Shown here: positions 3,320 through 59,516 of the stretch, piece by piece | How positions within the stretch are numbered: the stretch's first letter is position 1 | Layout: each line of letters begins with the position of its first letter | Assembly: GCA_018865545.1 (NCBI GenBank) | Contig: GCA_018865545.1_3633.1 | From: a phage | Strand: one strand, 5' to 3' | Length of the DNA stretch: 64,000 bases | Notes under the pieces: model-generated | The model's database searches: none | What the model was told of the DNA's origin: nothing | Seen by the model: only the letters and a program-made list of their open reading frames with translations | Made by a program: the position numbers and the translations under genes

Positions 3320-4174
3320 ATGGCAAAGATACCTGACGAAAACATTTCTTCTTATTTTGATGACTACCTGCATCACACAAAATCTATGAAAATAAATTTT
3401 AATGTATTCCGTGAAGCCATTATAAGGGAAGTTGAAAGTCGCCACCATGAACCAAACCCTTTAATAGAACTCATAAAACATGCTGTGCTTATGTGTTTTG
3501 ATACTCTGGATAGGAAATGTTACTGGAAATATTATGTTGAAGCTGACGAGCGTGCTTACATGGCAAGCGTAAACTTAACGCATGAGTTTTCAAGCTATGA
3601 TATTACTTGTGGGCAAATAACAATTTCTTTCCAAGGCTTTAATTATGGAATGTGTTTAGCAGGATCGTTGTCTGCACGAACACAAAAATTCCTGTCTGTT
3701 TTGTCCCAATTGGGGCATTGGGATGGTAATATGTTTTCCATAAAGGCTTCCTATGTCAGAACAAACCCAGATATTCTCCACATCAGGGAGATTAACTCCA
3801 GTTTTGGATCCTTTTCTCTGGCGGGTTGTTATGGAATGTTTTACCAAACAAAGATGTATGATTATGCAGGTCATGCTGCAATTAAGATAGCCAACACGCC
3901 AAACGTAGAGAATAAGAAATCGCACTACTACTTGGTGTGTAATACCCAAGAAGTAATGTACCATCGTGTTGTAGAAAAGGAGCTAAAAGAGCTTATCTTG
4001 GGGGAGATCCCTACCCAAGAGGAACGCTCAATGATAGAAATGGCTGGGTACAAAGGAGAATTTTTTCTTGATTCTCTTGTAGATTTTGATAATATTGGTA
4101 TAAAACCCTTTAACATGCAAGAGGCATATGAATGGCACAATCGAAGTCTGTCCCCAGTAACATGCAAGATTTAA
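3320..4174 (+). CDS. hypothetical protein
   Basis: ORF from ATG 3320 (track start 3314 is TTG); no motif recognised. Confidence 0.45.
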   Translation: MAKIPDENISSYFDDYLHHTKSMKINFNVFREAIIREVESRHHEPNPLIELIKHAVLMCFDTLDRKCYWKYYVEADERAYMASVNLTHEFSSYDITCGQITISFQGFNYGMCLAGSLSARTQKFLSVLSQLGHWDGNMFSIKASYVRTNPDILHIREINSSFGSFSLAGCYGMFYQTKMYDYAGHAAIKIANTPNVENKKSHYYLVCNTQEVMYHRVVEKELKELILGEIPTQEERSMIEMAGYKGEFFLDSLVDFDNIGIKPFNMQEAYEWHNRSLSPVTCKI

Positions 4175-6875: not shown

Positions 6876-7292
6876 ATGAATGATATGTGGATAAAAACAC
6901 CAAATGGTGTTAAAGATCTTGATGTTGGTAGATGGCTTGTCGTTTTGGCAGATGGTGAGATCGGTATTTGTGAATCCTATCAAGGTTATAACAGCATTGT
7001 TCATGTCATCAATGGATCTTTCTACTTTGATTGTGAACCTGTCATTGCTTATATGCCTATGCCATCTGTCAGTAATCTTCTGAAAGAGCATTTTAAAACA
7101 GATGCTAATTTTAAGACCGCTGGAGCTAAGGTGATGGATCTTGATGATTGGAATTTCGGTGTCCTAGCGGCGATTTTTAGCCCTGAAGATGGGAATGGAT
7201 ACTGGTGTCCTAACGATAGCTATGAATCTGACGTTTCAGTATGGGATAAAAAGCCAGACTGGGCCACACATGTGGTATGGTATAATCGTTGA
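6876..7292 (+). CDS. hypothetical protein
   Basis: 138-aa ORF. Confidence 0.45.
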   Translation: MNDMWIKTPNGVKDLDVGRWLVVLADGEIGICESYQGYNSIVHVINGSFYFDCEPVIAYMPMPSVSNLLKEHFKTDANFKTAGAKVMDLDDWNFGVLAAIFSPEDGNGYWCPNDSYESDVSVWDKKPDWATHVVWYNR

Positions 7293-7468
7293 TGGCAAAA
7301 CATAAATTTAAGAAAGACCAGCTACATGAGAAATGGTGGATTGAAAGATCCGATATGGTTATGGCTGGGTACACCTATAAAAATAAGCGTGTGTTTGTTG
7401 TTTGTGCTAAAAATAAAAGCGAGGCATTGGAAAGTATGAATGCCTTCCTTGAAAGGAGTTGTGAATGA
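7292..7468 (+). CDS. hypothetical small protein
   Basis: 58-aa ORF absent from the track (<60 aa); ATGA start/stop overlaps on both sides suggest translational coupling. Confidence 0.35.
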   Translation: MAKHKFKKDQLHEKWWIERSDMVMAGYTYKNKRVFVVCAKNKSEALESMNAFLERSCE

Positions 7469-7647
7469 AGGTTAAAATGATTTCTGATTTTTCGGATGTT
7501 GATGGATATCCAAAAACAGGAGATATTCTTGAAGTAAGAGAAGAAATATTTAATGGTAGTTTTCTTGAGTGTTACTCTTGCGAATGGAATGGGAAAAGAC
7601 TGGATATCTATCCATACGAATGCGAAGAGGTATCAGACAATGCTTAA
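7465..7647 (+). CDS. hypothetical protein
   Basis: 60-aa ORF. Confidence 0.35.
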   Translation: MKVKMISDFSDVDGYPKTGDILEVREEIFNGSFLECYSCEWNGKRLDIYPYECEEVSDNA

Positions 7648-8161
7648 GTATAAAGTTGGTTGCTTAATAGAGGCAGCACTTAAAAGGGATGTTAATGTGA
7701 TAGCTCATGGTTGTAATACATTTTGCACCATGGGGTCTGGAATTGCTAAAGAAATAAAGAATACATTCCCAAAAATGTATGCTGAAGATTTAAAGACAGA
7801 GAAAGGTGATCGAACAAAACTGGGCAGTTATACTTGGGTTGTCATGAACGAAGGTAAACTGGCTGGTTTTAATCTGTACACACAATACGGTTATAATGGG
7901 CGTAGAATGGGTGTGAGGGATCTGAATTATAACGCCCTTTACGATTCCTTAGCAGCAATGCGAGATTGTTTGCAAAGGCACACAGATGGCTTTATGTCTG
8001 ATTATAAGATCGGGCTGCCAAAAATAGGTGCTGGACTAGCAGGTGGGGATTGGAAAATCATAGAAACTATGATAGAATCTGTTCTCCATGATTGTGATGT
8101 GACAATTTATGTCTTAAATGAAGAGGAGATCCCCGATGGCAAAAGAGAACATGCATCCTGA
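7640..8161 (+). CDS. macro-domain (ADP-ribose binding/hydrolase-like) protein
   Basis: VNVIAHGCNTFCTMGSGIAKEI and GLPKIGAGLAGGDW resemble the two glycine-rich macro-domain loops; start moved to ATG 7640. Confidence 0.5.
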   Translation: MLKYKVGCLIEAALKRDVNVIAHGCNTFCTMGSGIAKEIKNTFPKMYAEDLKTEKGDRTKLGSYTWVVMNEGKLAGFNLYTQYGYNGRRMGVRDLNYNALYDSLAAMRDCLQRHTDGFMSDYKIGLPKIGAGLAGGDWKIIETMIESVLHDCDVTIYVLNEEEIPDGKREHAS

Positions 8162-8321
8162 TATTGCTTACGATAAAATTGCGGAAGCAATTAAAAGTAT
8201 TGATCCAAAAATTGTAGATGTGTTAGATCGTAAAGATGCTATGAGCGCAATTTATGACGCTTGCTATGAAGTTCTGTGGCAAGATGGTATGGAAGATATC
8301 GACGAGGTGGAGGGCCAATGA
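8136..8321 (+). CDS. hypothetical protein
   Basis: start at ATG 8136 preceded by GAGGAG. Confidence 0.35.
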   Translation: MAKENMHPDIAYDKIAEAIKSIDPKIVDVLDRKDAMSAIYDACYEVLWQDGMEDIDEVEGQ

Positions 8322-8704
8322 TGGAAAGTAAATCTGTAACAGGCGTATCTAAAGATACTTATGTCTGTGGGAAGAGATACGCTGGTATCCTGTTTGGTGC
8401 TGAACCCTATTTCGGTTTTGGTTATACAAAAGATGTGCGTTGTATCTGCGGATACTTAGCAGATGACCTCAAAAAGCGTGGATTTAGCGGTTCTAATATC
8501 AGGACTTCTGTTGTCGAAAGTCTGATTATGCACGATGGGGAAATCTATGCTATTACGATGAACAGCGCCTATCGCTTAGGTAGCCTCCAATTACAACATT
8601 TTATCTCCAGTCCTGTATGGAGTCAGGAGATCACGAAACTTCTCGCCCAAGCAACTCTTGGTGTGACTTTTATTAATAAGGAAGATAGTAATGCAAGCAA
8701 CTAA
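8318..8704 (+). CDS. hypothetical protein
   Basis: start at ATG 8318 preceded by GGAGG. Confidence 0.4.
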   Translation: MMESKSVTGVSKDTYVCGKRYAGILFGAEPYFGFGYTKDVRCICGYLADDLKKRGFSGSNIRTSVVESLIMHDGEIYAITMNSAYRLGSLQLQHFISSPVWSQEITKLLAQATLGVTFINKEDSNASN

Positions 8705-9725
8705 GTACCCAAGCACTAGTCAATTTCGCAATGTTATCCGAGCGGTTAATGACCGTCTGACTTATGATGGTCGTGATGAGAATGGCAATATAAAGCGTAA
8801 GGTTGCCTCTCCAGACCAATATCTCATTCCTTATGTAGGAACAGTTAAAATTCACGGGACTAATTGCCGTGTAGTCTTTAATTCTGAAAATGAGGTTGTA
8901 TACCAGTCCAAAGAACGCGTTTTGTCTCTGGAAGAAGATAATTATGGGTTTATGGCCTTTATGGTTGAAAAAGACCCTAAAGGCCTGTTGGAGCAAGTCA
9001 AACAGATCTGCGAAGATCGTGGTATTGAATTTAAGTTCCCAGTAGAAATCGCTGGGGAATTTGCAGGGAAAGGTATCCAGAAAGGTGTTGCGGTATCTGA
9101 AATCATGCCTTTCTTTACTATTTTCCGTGTGGCAGTAGGAAAAGAGAATGACCATCGGAAATGGTTAGCTTTAAACGATATTCTTGGCATTGGATTACCA
9201 GAACAACGTATTTATAATATTTTAACTTTTGGTAAGTGGGAACTGGATATTCCTTTTAACATGCCAGAGACAGTGCAATCAGAAATTGCACAGATTACCG
9301 AAGGTGTGGAAAAAGAGTGTCCAGTAGGTAAATATTTTGGCGTATCTGGTGTTGGTGAGGGTGTGGTATGGACACCTAAAGATCGCCACTTGGCACATGT
9401 TTCTGCACTTTGGTTTAAAGTGAAAGGGCAAAAACATTCTGTTTCTAAAGTGAAAACCCTGGCTGCTGTTGATCCTGTGAAACTGCAATCTATCAAAGAT
9501 TTTGTGGAGTATGCAGTTACTGAGAACCGTTTACGACAAGGGTTGCAAGAAATTGGATTGGACATCGCATCTCTGGGGGCATTTATCGCATGGGTTAACC
9601 GCGATATCAACAAAGAAGAAGCAGATGTGTTAGAAGCCAATTCTCTTTCTATGAAAGACGTGGCAAAATTTACAACAAATAAAGCCCGTAGTTGGTACAT
9701 GGAACAACTTAACGAGGTGTCTTGA
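8691..9725 (+). CDS. RNA ligase (Rnl2-like nucleotidyltransferase)
   Basis: motif I VKIHGTN (lysine nucleotidyltransferase), EGVVW (motif IV-like), FKVKG (motif V-like). Confidence 0.7.
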   Translation: MQATKYPSTSQFRNVIRAVNDRLTYDGRDENGNIKRKVASPDQYLIPYVGTVKIHGTNCRVVFNSENEVVYQSKERVLSLEEDNYGFMAFMVEKDPKGLLEQVKQICEDRGIEFKFPVEIAGEFAGKGIQKGVAVSEIMPFFTIFRVAVGKENDHRKWLALNDILGIGLPEQRIYNILTFGKWELDIPFNMPETVQSEIAQITEGVEKECPVGKYFGVSGVGEGVVWTPKDRHLAHVSALWFKVKGQKHSVSKVKTLAAVDPVKLQSIKDFVEYAVTENRLRQGLQEIGLDIASLGAFIAWVNRDINKEEADVLEANSLSMKDVAKFTTNKARSWYMEQLNEVS

Positions 9726-9910
9726 TGGCTTTAATTGTTTCTACGACACACACAACTGTAGAACGTGGTATGTTAAAGGCAAAGTGTGACACAATTATTT
9801 TTGAAGATGAAGAACAGGGCAGAAAGTTTATTGAAGACAATAAAACATTTGTATACTCTGTTCAGAAAGCACCTATTGTTAAAGAGAAACAAAACAATGA
9901 TTACGATTAA
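9722..9910 (+). CDS. hypothetical protein
   Basis: 62-aa ORF. Confidence 0.35.
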   Translation: MMALIVSTTHTTVERGMLKAKCDTIIFEDEEQGRKFIEDNKTFVYSVQKAPIVKEKQNNDYD

Positions 9911-10241
9911 TGGTAATACAATTTCTGGAAACTATACCAATGGTAGTATCTCTATCACCACTAAGGGTGATAATGTCTATATCAATGGTGATTTAGTTCA
10001 TACCACAAACGATAAAAACATCACAGTTATTATCAAAGGTGATGCTAAAGAGGTACGTACAACATCAGGTGGTATCAATGTCTATGGAAATGTCTCTAAT
10101 GGTGTGATCTCAACATCTGGGGATATTAATGTTGAGAAAGATATCTTAGGCAATGTATCTTCGGTGTCTGGTGATGTTTGCGCAAATACAATCCATGGAA
10201 GTGTAAACACAGTGTCTGGAGATATTCGTTTCCATCGCTAA
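9897..10241 (+). CDS. small beta-solenoid-like repeat protein
   Basis: 115 aa from ATG 9897; periodic G-x-(I/V)-x-V / SGD(I/V) repeats. Confidence 0.4.
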   Translation: MITINGNTISGNYTNGSISITTKGDNVYINGDLVHTTNDKNITVIIKGDAKEVRTTSGGINVYGNVSNGVISTSGDINVEKDILGNVSSVSGDVCANTIHGSVNTVSGDIRFHR

Positions 10242-10245
10242 CAGA

Positions 10246-10270
10246 AAGCCCCTTTATGGGGCTTATTTGT
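10246..10270 (+). terminator. rho-independent terminator
   Basis: stem AAGCCCC/GGGGCTT, loop TTTAT, then ATTTGT. Confidence 0.5.
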
Positions 10271-10282
10271 CTGGAGTTAGTT

Positions 10283-10801
10283 TTGAAAATAAGATCTTTA
10301 TTATTTGCAGTTTGCTGTGCACTTTCTCTGTCTATTACCCCTGTTCTAGCCAAAGAAAGTGCAAAGAAGCCCCAAGTTCTTCACATTTGCAAGAAGAATG
10401 ATACAGAGCTTAATATTCTTGCCTGTAACTTGTATAAAGAGGGAAGAGGAGAAGGTGATTATGGAATGATGGGTGTCGCTTTTGTCACATTGAATAGAAA
10501 AGATGACAAGAATTTCCCGCATACTATCAAGAAAGTAGTTTACCAGCCGGGGCAATTCTCTTGGACATTCGGTGGGCAATCCTTTAAAGTCTATGAAAAG
10601 GATAGGTGGTTAAGAGCTAAATTTTATGCTAAAATCTTGATGAGATTGCATAAAGACCACAAAAGTTTATACAAGGCTCTTGACTACACAAAATCAGCAA
10701 CGTACTATCATGCAACTACTGTTAGGCCATCTTGGGCAAAAGTCATGGTGAAAACAGTGAAGGTTGGGAATCATATTTTTTACAAGCATCCTGACGCATA
10801 A
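10283..10801 (+). CDS. secreted SleB-like cell wall hydrolase (candidate endolysin)
   Basis: signal-peptide-like N-terminus (KIRSLLFAVCCALSLSITPVLA); KEGRGEGDYGMMGVAFVTLNR and QPGQFSW match the SleB/Hydrolase_2 signature; start placed at TTG 10283 after GGAG. Confidence 0.6.
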   Translation: MKIRSLLFAVCCALSLSITPVLAKESAKKPQVLHICKKNDTELNILACNLYKEGRGEGDYGMMGVAFVTLNRKDDKNFPHTIKKVVYQPGQFSWTFGGQSFKVYEKDRWLRAKFYAKILMRLHKDHKSLYKALDYTKSATYYHATTVRPSWAKVMVKTVKVGNHIFYKHPDA

Positions 10802-10821
10802 TTAGTTCATAGAGGTATTGA

Positions 10822-12822
10822 ATGATTATTCAAAGATCTGACAACAAAGTTCAGGTAACTGGGAACGTAGAAAGATACCAAGCATCAATTGCAATGAATC
10901 CTGAGACTTTCAGTATTCTTATCGATGGAATTTATAAAGATAAACCTTTGGCAGCAGTACGAGAGCCTCTCTTCAACGCTGTAGATGCTCATACAGAGGC
11001 AGGGTGTTCTGATAAACCCATCATCATCCACTCACCAACAGACTTGGAACCTTGGTATTCTGTTAAGGATACAGGGTTAGGTATGGATCATGAGATGGTA
11101 ACACGTACATTCATGATGATTGGTGAGTCCACAAAAAGAAACAGTAATGATCTGATTGGCGCGAAAGGTATTGGGTCAAAAGCGCCTCTTGCAGTAACAG
11201 ATATGTTCACAGTTGTTTCTGTTAAAGATGGAGTGAAAACAACATACTCTGTTCACAAAAACAGCGGAATACCAGAGGTTGTACCTTTATTCTGTTGTGA
11301 AACAACAGAGGAGAATGGTGTAGAGGTTAAATTTAACGTAAACACTTGGGAAACAGGAGCTTATCGACAGGCTATTGTAAAATGCCTTCGTTATGCCAAA
11401 TTCCCATATATTATTAACGATCCTTTTGTTAAAACTCAGATTGAAGATCGCACTTATCCTGTTCAGTATCGGTATGAGGATGAGGAGACTGGCTGGGTTC
11501 TTGAGATGTATAGTAGCATTTCAAGAAACGCTGATAGTGTTGTCATCATGGGGCAACAACCATATCTCTCTGATTATCTCTCTACTCGCAAAGAACTGCC
11601 TATGATGACGGTATCTATCCCTATTGGGGATTGTAATGTAGATCCTGGCAGGGAGTGGACAGTAGAAGGAAAGAATGACGGGGGATTTCGTGATAAACTT
11701 GAAAGTTTTGTGACGAAAGCTATCCGACTTCGCGGAGAAGAAATCACAAAAGAATTAAGCGATCTGCCAACTTTAAAGGCAGTTCTTGATCATATGAAGT
11801 TTATTGGCGGTTACTTCGCTACAAAGTACGGTGCTGCTTTTATTGCAAATAAGTTCAAGAATTATACTGATGGTTCTTACATAGATTACTGTGAAACATA
11901 TGGTGGCGAAGGCTCACGCCGTGGTAAGGATGAGCGTTATTCATACGCAGAGTTGATGAATGGTCATCCACTGGTTTACAATGATGATCACAAGTATGTG
12001 CGCTCTAAATGTAATTGGCTTGCAGAGAAGTTCGGTAAGAGATCGTTTATAACCGATGCTGATTACGCTCTGTCCTTATACAGTGATAAATTCTTTGAGG
12101 GGATGATTTTCAAGTTATCTGAACTTGAAAAACGACCAGTGCAAAAAGCAGATAAAAAGTATGGTGGCTATGGTTATTACGAACCGGGTCATAAAGTTTG
12201 GATAATCAACCAAGATGGCTCCGTAGATGTAACCCGCATTTCCCGTGCTCAGTTTGAAGATATTGAGGCGGCTATGGTCTACTGGGGTGGGCAGGTGAAA
12301 GGATTATGCCCGTTAGGATACGTTTCCAATCTTAGAACAACTTGGAGAAAGCAACCGCCAACATTTCTTAAGAATCTTGGTGTAGCTGGTAAGTTATATA
12401 TTGTGCCTTTAAACAGATCAAGTTGGCTGCCAGATGAGGCACGGGTTATAACTGAGGAGGATATTCATGCTCTTGCAAAAACTAACCTTCTTGAATATCA
12501 TTTATATCAAGAAGTGGGGAAAGATCATGAGTATCATAACATTGTTAAAGAGCTTAGCTATTTTGGTGTGATGGTAGCTAGTTTCCCAAAATGGGAGATG
12601 AAGGTAAACATACCCAGTTATTGTTCAGTTCCTGGCTACGAAGATAGTCGTGAGAAAGCATTAGGGATGATAGAGGCCAAGAAGAGAATTGGGAAAAAGC
12701 TACTACAGATTAAGAAAGATCGTTACCCATTGTTAAAATACATTAATATTAGGCATTTCAATACTCCAGAGATGCTAGAGTATCGTAAATTTATTGACAG
12801 CAAAGGAGAAAAAGGTGAGTAA
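10822..12822 (+). CDS. GHKL (Bergerat-fold) ATPase-like protein
   Basis: N-box EPLFNAVDA, G1 box DTGLGM, G2-like GAKGIGSKA; 666 aa, rest unassigned. Confidence 0.5.
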   Translation: MIIQRSDNKVQVTGNVERYQASIAMNPETFSILIDGIYKDKPLAAVREPLFNAVDAHTEAGCSDKPIIIHSPTDLEPWYSVKDTGLGMDHEMVTRTFMMIGESTKRNSNDLIGAKGIGSKAPLAVTDMFTVVSVKDGVKTTYSVHKNSGIPEVVPLFCCETTEENGVEVKFNVNTWETGAYRQAIVKCLRYAKFPYIINDPFVKTQIEDRTYPVQYRYEDEETGWVLEMYSSISRNADSVVIMGQQPYLSDYLSTRKELPMMTVSIPIGDCNVDPGREWTVEGKNDGGFRDKLESFVTKAIRLRGEEITKELSDLPTLKAVLDHMKFIGGYFATKYGAAFIANKFKNYTDGSYIDYCETYGGEGSRRGKDERYSYAELMNGHPLVYNDDHKYVRSKCNWLAEKFGKRSFITDADYALSLYSDKFFEGMIFKLSELEKRPVQKADKKYGGYGYYEPGHKVWIINQDGSVDVTRISRAQFEDIEAAMVYWGGQVKGLCPLGYVSNLRTTWRKQPPTFLKNLGVAGKLYIVPLNRSSWLPDEARVITEEDIHALAKTNLLEYHLYQEVGKDHEYHNIVKELSYFGVMVASFPKWEMKVNIPSYCSVPGYEDSREKALGMIEAKKRIGKKLLQIKKDRYPLLKYINIRHFNTPEMLEYRKFIDSKGEKGE

Positions 12823-13807
12823 TCCTTTATTCATGTCACGTCGTGAAGCTCGTGAATACGCTAAGAAAAATAATATGGTGGTTGTTGATCGTGGTCTAAA
12901 TGTTCTTAAACGCTGGACAGTTGCACCCAAGAAAGGAATGCCGACAACCAAAAAGGCTAAGGAAGATCCTGTAGGTATTATGAAGCCAGTGCATACTCTT
13001 GCACAACCAATTGTCCTTGTTACCCAAGACAATATCCATATCACTTTGTTAAATGGTGAACAATATACTCTAAATAGTAGCAGCCCCATCTTCAAAGAAG
13101 TTGGTGTTATCCTTTGGACAGGAGGAATAGATGCTGCTGTACAACGTATTTTGGAAGAGAAAGAAGCAGAAAAGAAAAAGACCATTGATTTTGGTGATAA
13201 TTTAGTATTGATAGATAGTGCTTTATATTGGCACGGTCAAAAACAGGAAAGCAGTATTGCTAAACGAATCATTAAAGATATTGAGAATGATTGCTTTGAC
13301 GAACGATATGTCAAATTCATGCAGAAGTTGCTACACAACCCGTCGTATGCTTCTGTTAAAATGCTTTATGATTTTGTAAAACATAATGATCTTGAGATCC
13401 TTGAAAACGGAAATATTAAGGCATACAAGAAAATTAAGATAACTGTAGATGGCCCACGAGATTGTCATACAGGTAAAGTTCCTAATTATAAAGGGCAAGT
13501 GATTTCCATGCCACGTAATATGGTTGAGGATAATCCCAATAGAACATGTAGCCAAGGTTTGCATGTTGCATCTATTGACTATGCCGCTACCTTTGAGAAG
13601 ACTTCAAGGGCACTTGTAGAAGTATCTGTGGATCCGGCAGATATTGTCAGTGTCCCTTATGACTATAACCAGAAAAAATGCCGTTGCTGTCGTTATGAAG
13701 TTCTGACAGGAACACCAAAACCAGCAGGTGCACCAGATATTATTGTCATTGGTGTACAGGGTAAAATTCTTGAAGAGATTTATCTACAAGAATCTAAGGA
13801 GGACTGA
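12815..13807 (+). CDS. hypothetical protein
   Basis: start at GTG 12815 after AAAGGAG (ATG 12833 is an alternative). Confidence 0.45.
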   Translation: MSNPLFMSRREAREYAKKNNMVVVDRGLNVLKRWTVAPKKGMPTTKKAKEDPVGIMKPVHTLAQPIVLVTQDNIHITLLNGEQYTLNSSSPIFKEVGVILWTGGIDAAVQRILEEKEAEKKKTIDFGDNLVLIDSALYWHGQKQESSIAKRIIKDIENDCFDERYVKFMQKLLHNPSYASVKMLYDFVKHNDLEILENGNIKAYKKIKITVDGPRDCHTGKVPNYKGQVISMPRNMVEDNPNRTCSQGLHVASIDYAATFEKTSRALVEVSVDPADIVSVPYDYNQKKCRCCRYEVLTGTPKPAGAPDIIVIGVQGKILEEIYLQESKED

Positions 13808-15111
13808 TGTCTCAATACGGGGTTGGCGTTGAAGAAGCTCTTGGCGCTATAATGTCCGGTGAAAATGTGTTTATCAGTGGTTATGCAGGTGCTGGAAAGA
13901 GCCATACCATAAAAACTATCCAATCCTTATACGCAGGTTCAGTCTTGACAGTGGCCCCTACAGGGGCTGCTGCCATTAATGTGGATGGTATGACGGCACA
14001 CAGAGCTTTCGGACTTTCATTAGGCGTGTCCACTAAAAAAGATGCAGAAGAGATAAAGGCAAAGGCTAAGAAGTTGCTTAAAAGTAAAGCACTGAAGATT
14101 CTTATTATTGAAGAGATAAGTATGTTCAGGGCAGACAAACTTTGGGAAATGGACATGAAATGTCGTCTGGCACGTAAAAAACCTAAAGAGCCTTTCGGTG
14201 GTTTGCAGGTGTGCATGTTCGGGGATTTCTTACAGAATCCACCTGTTTTGAAAGGTGAAGAAAAAGAGATCTACTACCAGTTCCACGACACAGAACTTTG
14301 TTGCTTTTCTAAAACATGGAAAGAATTGAACCCATATCCTGTATTTCTTGATAAAATATACAGGCAAAGTAGTGTTCATTTTTCAACACTTCTTAATTGC
14401 CTTCGCAAGGGAGAGCGTATTCCAGAGATTGTTGAGTTTATGAATACTTATTGCTACAACATGGGAAAACCCTTGGATGCTATAACAATAACCTCAACAA
14501 ACGCGGCAGCAGACAAAATAAACAAAAAACGTTTTGATGCAATACCTGGAATCCCAACAGTTTACAAGGCAAAAAAGACAGGGCAATTTAACCAGACACC
14601 TGTACCTGAAGAGTTATATCTGAAAGAGGGGGCGCAGGTGATGATTACTGTCAATGACCCCAGAGGTCTGGATGAACCAAGTTATGTGAATGGTTCCCGT
14701 GGGGAGATTGTTGAACTACGTAAATACAGTGTTAAAGTCCGCCTTGAGAATGGTGATATTGTTGACGTAGAACCTTATGTGTGGGAAAATGTTGAGTATA
14801 ACCCCATAAAGGTGAAAAACCCAGATGGTACAATAACTGAAGAAATTGAGAAGATTATCATTGGTGAGTACAGGGCTTTACCGATTCGTCTTGGGTGGGC
14901 TGTTACAATACACAAAGCACAAGGATTAACATTACCGGAAGTTAATGTTGACTTTGGCAATGGGACTTTTGCACCGGGCATGGCATACGTGGCTTTTAGC
15001 AGAGCAACAAGTGCAAAAGGATTAAGGTTATTACGTAGGATCAGGGATAAAGATATTATCGTTGATCAACGTCTTGTTAAGTTTTATGAAGAGACTTTCC
15101 CTGGTAAGTAG
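13807..15111 (+). CDS. Dda/Pif1-like SF1B DNA helicase
   Basis: Walker A GYAGAGKSHT, Walker B ILIIEEISM, C-terminal VTIHKAQGLT motif; 434 aa. Confidence 0.75.
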   Translation: MSQYGVGVEEALGAIMSGENVFISGYAGAGKSHTIKTIQSLYAGSVLTVAPTGAAAINVDGMTAHRAFGLSLGVSTKKDAEEIKAKAKKLLKSKALKILIIEEISMFRADKLWEMDMKCRLARKKPKEPFGGLQVCMFGDFLQNPPVLKGEEKEIYYQFHDTELCCFSKTWKELNPYPVFLDKIYRQSSVHFSTLLNCLRKGERIPEIVEFMNTYCYNMGKPLDAITITSTNAAADKINKKRFDAIPGIPTVYKAKKTGQFNQTPVPEELYLKEGAQVMITVNDPRGLDEPSYVNGSRGEIVELRKYSVKVRLENGDIVDVEPYVWENVEYNPIKVKNPDGTITEEIEKIIIGEYRALPIRLGWAVTIHKAQGLTLPEVNVDFGNGTFAPGMAYVAFSRATSAKGLRLLRRIRDKDIIVDQRLVKFYEETFPGK

Positions 15112-15121
15112 GAGATAGCTG

Positions 15122-15547
15122 ATGGCCTCATATTCAAAAAGTGAACTTTTAAAGAAATTTAAAGCTGAATTAAAGGGTTGGTGGGATAATAAAGAATCTC
15201 ATCATGGTAAAGACACCACACATATCCAGATGGCATCGGTTGATGAAATGATGGCTGCATTAGGATATGCACCTCGTTTACTACCTAACTACCCAGATGT
15301 TAAGGATGGTCGTTTTGGATATTATCGTGTTTGGGGTTCTGAAAAACACCCTTTAAACCTGTCTTTTGAAGATGCTGTGTCACTTCATAATAATTGTGTT
15401 TGTAAAGCTCGTGTTTTAGCTCCTGACGCTATCAGCTTTGCTTTACGGAGTAAAATTGTACAACAGGTGGCTGTCCAGCGTTTGAAAGGTAAAGGTGAGA
15501 AAGGTCAGATCAAATCCCAGAAGCGTTGGATTAAATTCGAGGACTAA
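15122..15547 (+). CDS. hypothetical protein
   Basis: 141-aa ORF. Confidence 0.45.
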   Translation: MASYSKSELLKKFKAELKGWWDNKESHHGKDTTHIQMASVDEMMAALGYAPRLLPNYPDVKDGRFGYYRVWGSEKHPLNLSFEDAVSLHNNCVCKARVLAPDAISFALRSKIVQQVAVQRLKGKGEKGQIKSQKRWIKFED

Positions 15548-29107: not shown

Positions 29108-29289
29108 TGCGTGTGGCATGTATCGGCCTGTTACCGTATCCGATTCGATTTTGGGCATCTGCGCCAATTGCAAATCCGAATATCCTGATGGCTGACAACA
29201 TCATCTCGGCACAGAAGCGCCATACCGGTATTGCAGCGGCACGACGAGCAGCCAAGAAACGCAGAAAGTCAAAACATAAGAGGAAATAA
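29107..29289 (+). CDS. hypothetical protein with basic C-terminus
   Basis: C-terminal KKRRKSKHKRK. Confidence 0.35.
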   Translation: MRVACIGLLPYPIRFWASAPIANPNILMADNIISAQKRHTGIAAARRAAKKRRKSKHKRK

Positions 29290-29453
29290 TGAAAGAAATA
29301 TTATTTGCATTCATATTTGCACTTGTAAGTGTTCCTGTGGCGATGGTTATGGCTGGTTTACCAGTTCATAAAGGGCTGCTTTTTGCGGGGCATATAGGAG
29401 CTTTTGTCATAGGTTTGCTCACTTGTCTACAGGTGGTTGCTAAAGATGTGTAA
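29289..29453 (+). CDS. small hydrophobic (membrane) protein
   Basis: 54-aa ORF absent from the track; two hydrophobic stretches. Confidence 0.3.
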   Translation: MKEILFAFIFALVSVPVAMVMAGLPVHKGLLFAGHIGAFVIGLLTCLQVVAKDV

Positions 29454-31316: not shown

Positions 31317-31673
31317 ATGATGTCTTTTTTAGAGTGGGTCCAGGTGCATAATAACTGGTTCCCTGCTTTATCGTTTTATGTGTTGTGTTCTATTTGGGCT
31401 TTCATTTTATCGTATAAAGGGACATGGAAACACGTTGTTGTCTCTTTTGTTATGTTCGTTATTCTTGGGGCAACAACTATTAACTACTTTCTCCTTTACG
31501 AGGATGGCTACAAAGAGTACACAAAAAACTGGGAATCGTGCACAACACAAAAAGCATTGGATGAAATGTATGTCTTCGATAATGTAAAAGAGAAATGTAT
31601 GAAGCCTGTTGTTGGCTTTGTACCAACAGAGAGCGTAGATATACTGGAAATTAAAAATGGAGATTGGACATGA
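31317..31673 (+). CDS. membrane protein
   Basis: two hydrophobic segments in the N-terminal half. Confidence 0.4.
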   Translation: MMSFLEWVQVHNNWFPALSFYVLCSIWAFILSYKGTWKHVVVSFVMFVILGATTINYFLLYEDGYKEYTKNWESCTTQKALDEMYVFDNVKEKCMKPVVGFVPTESVDILEIKNGDWT

Positions 31674-31952: not shown

Positions 31953-32144
31953 ATGAGATTTTTATCTGCGTTAAGCATTCTCTTCATAGCGTTGAAGTTG
32001 TGTGAGATTATAGACTGGTCTTGGTGGTTAGTTCTTGCCCCTCTATACCTACCATGGGCAATTGTTGTCATGCCCCCTTTGATTATAGCGGTTACAGCAT
32101 TTGTCCTGTCTTTTCTCCAAGAAAAAGACAAAAAATCATCTTGA
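31953..32144 (+). CDS. small membrane protein
   Basis: 63 aa with two hydrophobic helices. Confidence 0.4.
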   Translation: MRFLSALSILFIALKLCEIIDWSWWLVLAPLYLPWAIVVMPPLIIAVTAFVLSFLQEKDKKSS

Positions 32145-55369: not shown

Positions 55370-55774
55370 ATGAAAAATATTTTAAAAATTACAATTGGTC
55401 TGTGCGTCTGTGCTGTTATTGCAGCGGGAACTCTCCAATATGTGAAAAAGAACCCAGATATTAATGATTATAAATCTGTCGAGGCAAGTTGGTTGTCGCC
55501 AGAAGAAAAAGATGAGGCAATTAGCCGTATTGTACAATTATCTTGCGATAAGAGATTCAGAGAAGCATTTAAACCAGGCGTTATTGTTGTGTCATCAGGT
55601 TTCGAGGGTAGGATAGCAGAACAGGCGGAAGCATATCAATATTTTGATGATGTCGCAATTATCTCAGGAAAACAATCTTACACTGGAAAATACATCTGCA
55701 CTTTTTACAAAGATGGGCGGGAAGTGTATATTAATGCAAACTTGGATAAAGGAGTGCAAGGAATCCTAAAATAA
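55370..55774 (+). CDS. secreted/periplasmic protein (moron-like accessory gene)
   Basis: N-terminal signal peptide MKNILKITIGLCVCAVIAAGT; opposite strand to surrounding structural genes; own promoter and terminator. Confidence 0.55.
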   Translation: MKNILKITIGLCVCAVIAAGTLQYVKKNPDINDYKSVEASWLSPEEKDEAISRIVQLSCDKRFREAFKPGVIVVSSGFEGRIAEQAEAYQYFDDVAIISGKQSYTGKYICTFYKDGREVYINANLDKGVQGILK

Positions 55775-59489: not shown

Positions 59490-59516
59490 TGCTTAACTCC
59501 TTGAAAAAAAAACATT

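Follow-up and report, generated by a model that had tools for sequence, protein, structure and literature searches.

A predicted exported SleB-like hydrolase encoded upstream of rIIA in a Vequintavirinae phage, a candidate accessory muralytic enzyme

Does a small cell-wall hydrolase with an N-terminal export signal, encoded among early genes beside rIIA, serve its phage as the endolysin, or does it act on the wall in some other capacity? The locus in question lies in a 64,000-nucleotide stretch of phage DNA, analyzed here as a whole and termed the window, from a member of the Vequintavirinae that is 96% identical to Av-05 and 95.5% identical to TH18. The gene is not new: it has been annotated before in Av-05 ("cell wall hydrolase SleB"/"endolysin"), and the literature describes it as conserved throughout the Vequintavirinae, equipped with a signal peptide and toxic in E. 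coli. The authors of the CB7 study, in particular, note the signal peptide and report toxicity upon expression in E. coli ('data not shown').

Start codon and upstream hairpin

The open frame on the forward strand extends over 10178-10801, within which the realistic coding sequence is 10283-10801, ending with the TAA at 10799-10801. The elements that bear on its expression are:

10246-10264, forward strand: GC-rich, terminator-like hairpin of the rho-independent type with a U-rich tail, directly 5' of the ribosome-binding site
10256-10258, forward strand: first in-frame ATG, within the hairpin; taken as the start codon in RefSeq Av-05
10273-10276, forward strand: Shine-Dalgarno sequence GGAG, with a 6-nt spacer to the TTG at 10283-10285
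10283-10801, forward strand: coding sequence of the predicted exported SleB-like (Hydrolase_2) peptidoglycan-cleaving enzyme; 172 amino acids, TTG start, TAA stop

All the elements listed in a preliminary description of this DNA are present in the sequence where it had placed them. It had located the first in-frame ATG in the loop of the hairpin, which holds for the A and the T, whereas the G already opens the 3' arm, and had preferred TTG 10283 with its GGAG site as the start. Comparison with relatives bears out this preference. The ATG at 10256-10258 lacks a Shine-Dalgarno sequence and has no counterpart in KB57, slur12, PBES02 and Schickermooser; in these phages, which represent four other genera, there is no in-frame start codon 5' of the homologous TTG, GTG or ATG, so that this NTG is the sole in-frame option, and it is preceded by (T)TTGGAG or AGGAGG. 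Because these four relatives are without any in-frame start further upstream, we assign the start to TTG 10283 and not to the loop ATG. Across all relatives compared, (T)TTGGAG or AGGAG is found 6-8 nt 5' of the start, the N-terminus of every homologue has the form M-K/L-[IVLK], and the start codon is TTG or GTG in six of seven genomes. The upstream ATGs given as database starts for Av-05 and PVP-SE1 are thus not supported by the comparative evidence. The practical result for the window is a correction of the start from the ATG of RefSeq Av-05 to TTG 10283.

The hairpin comprises a 7-bp stem with five G-C pairs and a 5-nt loop (AAGCCCC, loop TTTAT, GGGGCTT), followed by ATTTGTCTGG. A 76-nt region containing it folds with a free energy of -20.2 kcal/mol (z=-2.33 versus shuffles). 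A terminator scan of positions 7000-15500 found 3 candidates against 5.4 expected in shuffles, i.e. no excess; hence, the significance of the hairpin comes from its conservation in relatives and not from the scan. A hairpin with a U tract occurs at the same place, with differing stems, in Av-05, 4MG, KB57, slur12, PBES02, JG004 and PS24, and this arrangement directly 5' of the Shine-Dalgarno sequence is seen in six Vequintavirinae genomes and two Pseudomonas phages. The rV5 counterpart is the published terminator t003. The window hairpin itself has a weak U tract (AUUUGU) and is a putative terminator. The retention across genera of both the upstream terminator hairpin and a non-ATG start suggests that expression is deliberately kept low. 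For a distant homologue, gp151 of PAK_P3, RNA-seq at 3.5 min recorded reads about 6-fold below those of the upstream gene; its transcript is present both early and late without significant change, and it is not a late gene.

Catalytic domain, cysteine pairs and export signal

The following features were delineated in the protein:

10283-10351, forward strand: predicted Sec signal peptide spanning residues 1-23 (MKIRSLLFAVCCALSLSITPVLA); the predicted cut follows A23
10352-10798, forward strand: predicted mature periplasmic protein; 149 amino acids, 17.4 kDa, pI 9.8
10388-10390, forward strand: codon of Cys36, predicted from co-occurrence to be the disulfide partner of Cys48
10424-10426, forward strand: codon of Cys48, five residues N-terminal to the catalytic Glu; co-occurs with Cys36
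10439-10441, forward strand: codon (GAG) of Glu53, the predicted catalytic residue, in the motif Y-K-E-G-R-G-E
10448-10783, forward strand: Pfam Hydrolase_2 (PF07486) domain, residues 56-167, by profile match

The assignment to SleB/Hydrolase_2 is far above chance. The Pfam profile PF07486 is matched over its entire length (1-100 of 100) with E=3.4e-21 and 76.2 bits against a gathering score of 27; PHROG 938, labeled 'endolysin', is recovered with E=1.2e-26, and the SleB chains 4f55 and 4fet in the PDB with E=3.7e-9 and 2.9e-8. An AlphaFold2 model has a pLDDT of 88.9, with residues 31-170 above 90, and in fold searches it retrieves 4f55/4fet with probability 1.00 and TM-scores of 0.73-0.77; nothing besides SleB catalytic domains was found in the PDB at E<=0.001. 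Of 178 aligned sequences, 177 have Glu53, which is invariant in the alignment A1; E53, N71, R72 and H164 are all invariant or nearly so across the 178. In 4f55/4fet the residue aligned with Glu53 is the Glu of the Y-G-E-S-R-G-E motif, which we take to be the catalytic residue of SleB.

The comparison with Bacillus SleB (4F55, 4FET), a germination-specific lytic transglycosylase, also marks the limits of the analogy. The two share the fold, 26% identity and the motifs Y-x-E-x-R-G-E, N-R, Q-F-S-W and H...Y; the phage protein, however, lacks the N-terminal PG_binding_1 domain, Hydrolase_2 being the only domain found and residues 24-40 forming a short linker, and it carries a predicted periplasmic disulfide pair that is absent from SleB. 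Correspondingly, the profile of the spore cortex-lytic enzyme equivalog, TIGR02869, gives 53 bits, below its cut-off of 236.5. SleB is a spore protein that requires muramic-delta-lactam, whereas the phage host has no cortex with this modification; as muramic-delta-lactam is absent from E. coli, the substrate preference of SleB is not transferable to the phage enzyme. In a review the SleB domain is grouped with the lytic transglycosylases, and by analogy the phage enzyme would likewise cleave glycan strands as a lytic transglycosylase.

The disulfide prediction is based on covariation of cysteine pairs. All 41 of the 178 aligned homologues that have C36 also have C48, and a second pair, C45+C83, is found in 117 of the 118 sequences having C45 and is mutually exclusive with C36+C48. 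Two exclusive, co-occurring pairs indicate disulfides, and therefore point to an oxidizing compartment as the probable location of the domain.

The preliminary description had placed SleB/Hydrolase_2 motifs behind a typical signal peptide, and the N-terminus, the Pfam match and the modeled fold agree with this. Applying the sequence rules by reading, we recognize in MKIR-SLLFAVCCALSLSI-TPVLA/KE (the slash marking the predicted cleavage) an n/h/c layout with P at -4, V at -3 and A at -1. In homologues the c-region P-[VA]-[LV]-A and the following K or A are kept while the h-region varies freely, and a hydrophobic N-terminus is present in 143 of 161 close homologues; the PBES02 homologue has an annotated sig_peptide feature. 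In the AlphaFold2 model residues 1-30 have low confidence, with a helix at 3-17. A lipoprotein signal was considered and rejected, as the residues before Cys11 and Cys12 are A-V and V-C and do not form a lipobox of the type [LVI][ASTVI][GAS]. No twin-arginine motif is found in the N-terminus.

Genomic context and the relation to other lysins

The gene lies in the early/middle block, among replication and RNA-repair genes, not within a lysis cassette and 23 kb from the structural block. Its upstream neighbor (9894-10241) encodes a soluble beta-solenoid protein, for which a fold search gave no significant match, and downstream is:

10822-12822, forward strand: rIIA, starting 20 nt past the stop of the SleB-like gene

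The order SleB-like gene, rIIA, rIIB, helicase is kept in the subfamily, including slur12 and 4MG, and in rV5 gene 2 (the hydrolase) overlaps gene 1 (rIIA). Orthologues in the Vequintavirinae (rV5 gp2, PVP-SE1 SleB, CR3_087, CB7_83 and Av-05 Av05_00150) have the same signal peptide, cysteine pair and upstream hairpin, and their genes sit between the RNA-ligase block and rIIA/helicase; identity is 96-97% to Av-05 and P0001, 57-63% to Seunavirus and Mydovirus, and 51% to rV5-like proteins. More distant exported Hydrolase_2 proteins occur in other virulent phages: the T5-like 'SleB' (phiR2-01 g072, AKFV33 ORF81), PJG4_029 of JG004 (Pakpunavirus), sleB of PS24 and gp151 of PAK_P3 (both Nankokuvirus), and those of Phapecoctavirus. 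These are likewise small and single-domain and carry an export signal at the N-terminus, and their genes lie among others that are early or serve nucleic-acid metabolism; a hairpin is again found just 5' of the gene in JG004 and PS24. However, they are only 31-43% identical to the window protein, have no rII linkage, and use the alternative pair C45+C83, except for JG004, whose cysteines are arranged differently. The T5-like homologues have a cleavable signal peptide, whereas the Pseudomonas phage versions (Pakpunavirus and Nankokuvirus) have an N-terminal membrane anchor in its place.

No holin or spanin adjoins the SleB-like gene in the window. The earlier suggestion that the lysis functions are dispersed agrees with the relatives, in which the spanins adjoin the terminase and the GH19 lysin adjoins phoH. 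A scan of the 89 ORFs of the window recognized no other muralytic domain, and no lysozyme like rV5 gp89 was found among the ORFs at 26-34 kb. In 4MG, KB57 and Certrevirus a small, holin-like ORF with two transmembrane segments directly follows or overlaps the SleB-like gene, a possible link to lysis; the window lineage and rV5 are without this adjacent small membrane ORF of the other genera. When the ORFs from 4MG, KB57 and PBES02 were used as tblastn queries against the window, TH18 and Av-05, the matches were at chance level only, and in PHROGs none of these candidates bears a holin label.

Every genome checked carries a canonical lysin besides the SleB-like protein. The closest complete relative, TH18, encodes a signal-less endolysin combining PG_binding_1 and Glyco_hydro_19 domains (PHROG 181, E=3.9e-75) outside the window; rV5 has the Phage_lysozyme gp89 in addition to gp2, CB7 and W70 have M15 peptidases, and in T5-like phages an M15 peptidase adjoins the holin with the SleB-like gene far away. 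By analogy with TH18, the main endolysin of the window phage most probably lies outside the window. The proposal of a signal-peptide endolysin therefore stands in part: an exported wall hydrolase is well predicted, but the protein is unlikely to be the endolysin of this phage, because TH18 has a canonical, signal-less GH19 endolysin, and other lineages also pair two lysins. Canonical endolysins are cytoplasmic, without a secretion signal, and act as the main enzyme of a lysis cassette or late operon; here the N-terminal signal peptide is conserved, no holin or spanin adjoins, and the GH19 enzyme of TH18 is encoded elsewhere.

Two Av-05 products were rejected as further lysis components. Av05_00178, a 'glycoside hydrolase', is a T4 e-lysozyme homologue within an 11-kb T4-like block; the window is without this block and joins its flanks directly, for which reason the block is probably an assembly chimera. 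Av05_0065, a 'hydrolase' between two membrane proteins, does not look muralytic on reading of its sequence and lies outside the window.

A proposed accessory enzyme and its alternatives

The reading that we tentatively regard as the best is that of a holin-independent, periplasmic, disulfide-stabilized accessory muralytic enzyme resembling lytic transglycosylases. The small pre-protein would be exported by the host Sec system and cut after Ala23 by signal peptidase I, releasing a basic, soluble periplasmic enzyme of 149 residues with the SleB/CwlJ (Hydrolase_2) fold. This would use Glu53, by analogy with SleB, for the cleavage of glycan strands, with a Cys36-Cys48 disulfide formed in the periplasm bracing the helix that bears the catalytic Glu. 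Since no holin is needed for such an enzyme to reach the wall, the phage would keep its dose low, by an upstream terminator that requires read-through and a weak TTG start. In its accessory role it would nick or thin the sacculus from the periplasmic side, which would make for rapid and full lysis when the spanins and the holin-dependent PG_binding_1+GH19 endolysin, whose gene lies elsewhere in the genome, come into action. We infer that the protein is exported and cleaved, has the chemistry of a lytic transglycosylase, is kept at low dosage and takes an accessory part in lysis. The placement in the early/middle block and the early-plus-late transcription in PAK_P3 would suit a role before lysis equally well, and late expression would be simpler if lysis were the sole purpose of the gene.

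Such a role before lysis is a possible, if somewhat doubtful, alternative: a low-dose exported lytic transglycosylase could remodel or turn over the sacculus well ahead of lysis, for the release of muropeptides or precursors (an auxiliary metabolic function), for a change of the wall against superinfection or for cell enlargement, leaving lysis itself to the GH19 endolysin, holin and spanins. The position beside rIIA/rIIB among replication and RNA-repair genes, outside any lysis cassette, is in keeping with this, as are the conserved expression-damping signals, the transcription of PAK_P3 gp151 by 3.5 min, the proposal of the PAK_P3 authors that gp151 is an auxiliary metabolic gene explaining the accumulation of cell-wall precursors, and the recurrence of a second exported Hydrolase_2 protein in unrelated virulent lineages with a complete lysis system. 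Against the idea, the translationally coupled, holin-like ORF of three genera resembles a lysis pair, and toxicity upon expression suggests a lethal rather than a gentle enzyme. An unlikely alternative makes the protein the principal endolysin after all, secreted early in the manner of Lys44 and effective once a distant holin collapses the membrane potential. It is the sole muralytic domain in the 64-kb window; its gene is present in all Vequintavirinae genera while the other lysin switches type between them (GH24 in rV5, GH19 in TH18 and PVP-SE1-like phages, M15 in CB7 and W70); PHROG and RefSeq label it 'endolysin'; and the holin-like ORF adjoins it in three genera. Yet the database names are automatic transfers and not tests, a canonical lysin accompanies it in every genome examined, and its gene, with a weak start codon, follows a terminator in an early/middle block.

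Routes to the periplasm or wall without a holin pore are known from the SAR endolysins (P1 Lyz, phage 21 R) and from Lys44 of the Oenococcus phage fOg44, which use Sec. These have T4-lysozyme-like or GH25-type folds and are the sole endolysins of their phages, encoded in the lysis cassette. The window protein shares with them the predicted Sec route without a holin pore, and with Lys44 the order of a predicted cleavable signal peptide followed by a muralytic domain, but differs in its catalytic fold; moreover, SAR domains are uncleaved, in contrast to its conserved signal peptidase I site. It is quite improbable that the protein is itself a SAR endolysin, held inactive at the inner membrane by an uncleaved N-terminal segment until a pinholin depolarizes it, with a variant in which cysteines of the signal segment might reshuffle the Cys36-Cys48 disulfide in the manner of P1 Lyz. 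The residues S5-A23 do include 9 of 19 (47%) Gly/Ala/Ser/Thr/Cys, a Cys recurs in the hydrophobic segment of the Avunavirus, Seunavirus and Mydovirus homologues, Cys48 and the catalytic Glu are 5 residues apart, and the anchors of the Pakpunavirus and Nankokuvirus homologues look uncleaved. Against these are a textbook signal peptidase I site (P-V-L-A/K) kept across genera, a hydrophobic core of only about 14 residues, and, in the window, rIIA directly downstream with no adjoining pinholin; the absence of the segment Cys from rV5-like, Certrevirus and Phapecoctavirus homologues leads us to reject P1-Lyz-type activation except as a low-probability rival. Least probable of all is a virion-associated lysin acting in DNA injection: peptidoglycan-cleaving domains are common in tail tips and some structural matches in BFVD are SleB-like domains in proteins of more than 1000 residues, but here the protein is small, has a Sec signal and is encoded far from the structural module. 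The preliminary description had named virion association as evidence against a lysis protein; the virions of relatives are without it, CB7_83 not being among the 26 CB7 virion proteins and rV5 gp2 not being in the published rV5 virion proteome.

With the accessory enzyme as the preferred reading for the window, a wider generalization is conceivable, which we put forward as a speculation more likely to fail than to hold: unrelated virulent phages of Gram-negative hosts (Vequintavirinae, Stephanstirmvirinae, T5-like Demerecviridae, Pakpunavirus and Nankokuvirus) might each have retained a Hydrolase_2 lytic transglycosylase as a second enzyme, exported and independent of a holin, which is made from early in infection, acts before lysis and is deliberately held at a low level by a terminator directly 5' of its gene, together with a non-ATG start in the E. 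coli-type phages. Automatic pipelines call the window protein 'endolysin' and endolysin-mining studies count it as such; if it is truly a low-dose, self-exporting accessory enzyme, these labels mislead enzybiotic screens as well as models of lysis in rV5-like phages. Unaided passage across the inner membrane, combined with toxicity to E. coli, could also make such a protein useful as a tool. Were the generalization true, the exported Hydrolase_2 proteins would constitute a distinct class of phage peptidoglycan enzymes, neither endolysins nor virion lysins, with wall conditioning, muropeptide release or superinfection control before lysis as their functions.

Genomic setting and start codon of the SleB-like gene

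Escherichia phage Av-05 (Vequintavirinae, Avunavirus) shares 96.3% identity with the 4 kb around the SleB-like gene, and vB_EcoM_TH18 (TH18) and three related records share 95.5%. The order in the window is: macro-domain protein, RNA ligase, β-solenoid protein, hairpin, SleB-like gene, rIIA, rIIB and a PIF1-like helicase.

Features in and around the SleB-like gene
7553-8161, +, macro-domain protein
8691-9725, +, RNA ligase
9894-10241, +, β-solenoid protein, 115 aa, directly 5' of the hairpin
10246-10264, GC-rich hairpin: 7-bp stem (5 G-C), loop TTTAT, tail ATTTGTCTGG
10256-10258, in-frame ATG spanning the hairpin loop and 3' arm
10273-10276, GGAG (Shine-Dalgarno), followed by a 6-nt spacer
10283, TTG start
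10283-10801, +, SleB-like ORF, 172 codons, TAA stop
10822-12822, rIIA, directly 3' of the SleB-like gene

The sequence elements listed in the preliminary description were all found where it had placed them; the folding energy around the hairpin is -20.2 kcal/mol (z=-2.33). That description also favored TTG 10283 as the start, and the homologous starts in relatives bear this out: the codon is TTG in 4MG (Seunavirus), KB57 (Mydovirus) and Schickermooser, GTG in slur12 (rV5-like) and ATG in PBES02 (Certrevirus). The proteins of these five phages open with M-K/L-[IVLK] at the equivalent position, and relatives' start codons lie 6-8 nt 3' of (T)TTGGAG, AGGAG or AGGAGG. In KB57, slur12, PBES02 and Schickermooser no in-frame ATG, GTG or TTG occurs between the previous stop and the homologous start, which is thus the sole possibility there. 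The loop ATG, taken as the start in the Av-05 annotation, is limited to the Av-05/window lineage, has no Shine-Dalgarno sequence and was rejected. On these comparative sequence grounds we regard TTG 10283 as secure.

The upstream neighbor is an all-β solenoid with SGD[VI] repeats (AlphaFold2 pLDDT 81). It shows sub-threshold Pfam hints of Bactofilin (E=0.003, 4MG homologue) and FapA (E=0.026), and one homologue is named ‘polymer-forming cytoskeletal protein’ in UniRef; a Foldseek search against the PDB gave no significant match. Avunavirus, Seunavirus and Mydovirus have its gene 5' of the SleB-like gene; the rV5-like phages and Certrevirus do not. As some bacterial bactofilins recruit peptidoglycan enzymes, a phage bactofilin-like protein beside a wall hydrolase is suggestive. 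Further upstream, the macro-domain protein (Pfam Macro E=1.6e-4, barely at threshold) is encoded close 5' of the RNA ligase, and in Av-05 a methyltransferase is annotated between the two; 7553-9725 could be an RNA-repair or ADP-ribose-related counter-defense cluster.

Catalytic domain, export signal and cysteine pairs

The SleB-like protein covers the complete Pfam Hydrolase_2 profile (PF07486; E=3.4e-21; 76.2 bits, threshold 27) and matches PHROG 938 ‘endolysin’ (1.2e-26); its Av-05 counterpart is annotated as ‘cell wall hydrolase SleB’ in GenBank and ‘endolysin’ in RefSeq. SleB catalytic domains are its PDB sequence match (4f55, 3.7e-9) and, as 4f55/4fet, the sole significant PDB fold matches (probability 1.00, TM-score 0.73-0.77) of an AlphaFold2 model built from 22 sequences (mean pLDDT 88.9; residues 31-170 >90). 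The Glu of the SleB motif Y-G-E-S-R-G-E corresponds in the alignment to E53 of the phage protein (motif Y-K-E-G-R-G-E). Of 178 sequences, 177 have this Glu, and N71, R72 and H164 are equally fixed. A review classes the SleB domain with lytic transglycosylases; two phage papers nevertheless label it an amidase. Unlike SleB proper, the phage protein has no peptidoglycan-binding domain and scores 53 bits where TIGR02869 (SleB equivalog) requires 236.5, and is hence not an equivalog.

The N-terminus comprises an n-region (MKIR), an h-region (SLLFAVCCALSLSI) and a c-region (TPVLA), followed by KESAKK; the cleavage site predicted from it has A at -1, V at -3 and P at -4. This N-terminus contains neither a lipobox nor a twin-arginine motif. 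Between genera the h-region changes freely, while P-[VA]-[LV]-A with K/A after it persists in the c-region, as would be expected if a signal peptide is cleaved off. A mature protein of 149 aa, 17.4 kDa and pI 9.8 is predicted. A hydrophobic N-terminus is found in 143 of 161 close homologues (library-wide phmmer matches with at least 25 residues ahead of the catalytic motif). Export signals are likewise predicted in other phage groups: a cleavable signal in T5-like homologues (...SHA, cut before T) and an N-terminal membrane anchor in those of Pakpunavirus and Nankokuvirus.

Two cysteine pairs are mutually exclusive among the 178 aligned sequences: C36+C48 (both in 41 sequences, C36 alone in 0) and C45+C83 (C83 present in 117 of the 118 having C45). 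The Bacillus SleB catalytic domain has neither. This covariation gives independent support for the predicted periplasmic location. The molecular identity of the protein as a Hydrolase_2 enzyme with predicted export is secure.

Second lysins and holin candidates

The suggestion that this protein is a signal-peptide endolysin holds in part. Its muralytic domain is the sole recognizable one inside the window: a Pfam scan of the 88 other ORFs (at least 70 aa, coding strands) returned 41 families, none acting on peptidoglycan. Relatives have a second lysin. TH18, the closest complete genome (133.9 kb), encodes a 234-aa endolysin with PG_binding_1 and Glyco_hydro_19 domains and no signal peptide (PHROG 181 ‘endolysin’, 3.9e-75); its gene adjoins phoH, beyond the stretch equivalent to the window. 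rV5 has both gp2 (Hydrolase_2, overlapping rIIA) and gp89 (Phage_lysozyme, termed ‘an obvious lysin’); CB7 and W70 have an M15 peptidase besides the SleB-like protein; in T5-like Salmonella phages the M15 endolysin adjoins the holin and the SleB-like gene is distant. Two other publications describe pairs of lytic or endolysin genes, in a Phapecoctavirus and a Certrevirus respectively. The SleB-like protein is kept across the whole subfamily (CB7 paper), unlike the canonical lysin, whose type differs from genus to genus; the contrast speaks for a separate, non-redundant role rather than ‘the’ endolysin. A principal Sec-type endolysin is improbable. CB7_83 is not among the 26 CB7 virion proteins, nor is rV5 gp2 in the rV5 virion proteome; virion association is therefore unlikely, and a virion lysin barely credible.

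At 102.8-114.1 kb the Av-05 record (NC_025830) contains T4-like DNA, a block of 11 kb that encodes a homologue of the T4 e-lysozyme as well as denV, ipI-III, tk, vs, regB and rI. This block is missing from the window, where its flanks are joined directly (compared: window 1, 59504-59512), and Av-05 is also without the phoH-GH19 endolysin-RNR block of TH18. The record looks chimeric or misassembled, so its gene content is unfit for inferring the lysis system of the lineage.

In 4MG, KB57 and Certrevirus (PBES02, CB7) an ORF of 51-65 aa with two transmembrane segments overlaps the SleB-like gene or follows within 4 nt; the CB7 authors consider theirs a class II holin candidate. At the three relatives' loci tabulated below this ORF is 51-62 aa long. 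In 4MG the SleB-like gene is followed by the small membrane ORF, then rIIA, rIIB and the helicase. In the window and rV5 there is no small ORF and rIIA comes next, in rV5 overlapping the hydrolase gene; a tblastn search of the window for this ORF gave chance-level hits only. The SleB-like gene and the small ORF look like an exported lysin and holin/pinholin pair, lost or moved in the window lineage and rV5.

Small membrane ORFs
L007 (4MG locus, Seunavirus), 3536-3709, two transmembrane segments, basic C-terminus
L008 (Mydovirus locus), 3536-3688, two transmembrane segments
L010 (PBES02 locus, Certrevirus), 3474-3662, two transmembrane segments
Window, 29289-29453, +, 54 aa, 2 transmembrane segments
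Window, 31317-31673, +, 118 aa, 2 transmembrane segments
Window, 31953-32144, +, 63 aa, 2-3 transmembrane segments, charged C-terminus QEKDKKSS, phrog_1374

The three window ORFs carry no holin label in PHROGs and are candidate holins or antiholins. With these lying elsewhere in the window and spanins adjoining the terminase in relatives, the preliminary description was right to suggest dispersed lysis functions. A lone 134-aa gene lies at 55370-55774 (+), on the opposite strand within the structural module. The N-terminus of its product resembles a signal peptide (MKNILKITIGLCVCAVIAAG...), and its PHROG match is phrog_11434 (‘membrane protein’, category moron); this product may be a surface or exclusion protein.

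Expression context and proposed role

In the window, Av-05, 4MG, KB57, slur12 and PBES02 the Shine-Dalgarno sequence is preceded, at a distance of 8-12 nt, by a hairpin with a U tract. The distant Pseudomonas phages JG004 and PS24 have such a hairpin too; the stem sequence differs in every genome compared. The rV5 hairpin has been published as the rho-independent terminator t003 (-16 kcal/mol), with no promoter listed between t003 and gene 2. The start is TTG or GTG in six of seven E. coli-type genomes. In published PAK_P3 RNA-seq the distant homologue gp151 is transcribed by 3.5 min, when its reads are about six-fold below those of the gene 5' of its hairpin, and shows no significant change by 13 min, against increases of log2 4-12 for true late genes. 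Together, these features suggest production before lysis at low dose, which fits an enzyme whose access to the wall needs no holin and whose expression in E. coli the CB7 authors reported as toxic (data not shown).

A sigma-70-like element, TTGACT-17-TACTAT at 10680-10708 (+), lies within the 3' part of the gene, 114 nt 5' of the rIIA ATG. At the homologous codons 4MG has a better one (TTGACA-17-TATTAT), and KB57, slur12 and PBES02 have none. It may serve rIIA/rIIB as an internal promoter, or it may simply arise from the conserved L-D-x-T...Y-Y codons.

The gene, its SleB-like domain, signal peptide and Vequintavirinae-wide conservation were already known from databases and literature. The present analysis adds the comparative proof of the start codon, the predicted covarying disulfide pairs, the terminator and weak-start context kept across relatives and, based on TH18, the probable placement of the canonical endolysin outside the window.

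As to physiological role, a SAR endolysin is very improbable, since the cleavage site is conserved and the Cys in the signal segment is not. A periplasmic role other than lysis is possible if somewhat unlikely; examples are wall turnover, superinfection control and an auxiliary metabolic function, the last already suggested in published work for PAK_P3 gp151. We tentatively favor an accessory muralytic enzyme: the pre-protein would be exported by Sec and cleaved by signal peptidase, and the mature, disulfide-braced, lytic-transglycosylase-like enzyme, expressed at a low level from the early/middle block, would act in the periplasm next to the canonical GH19 endolysin.
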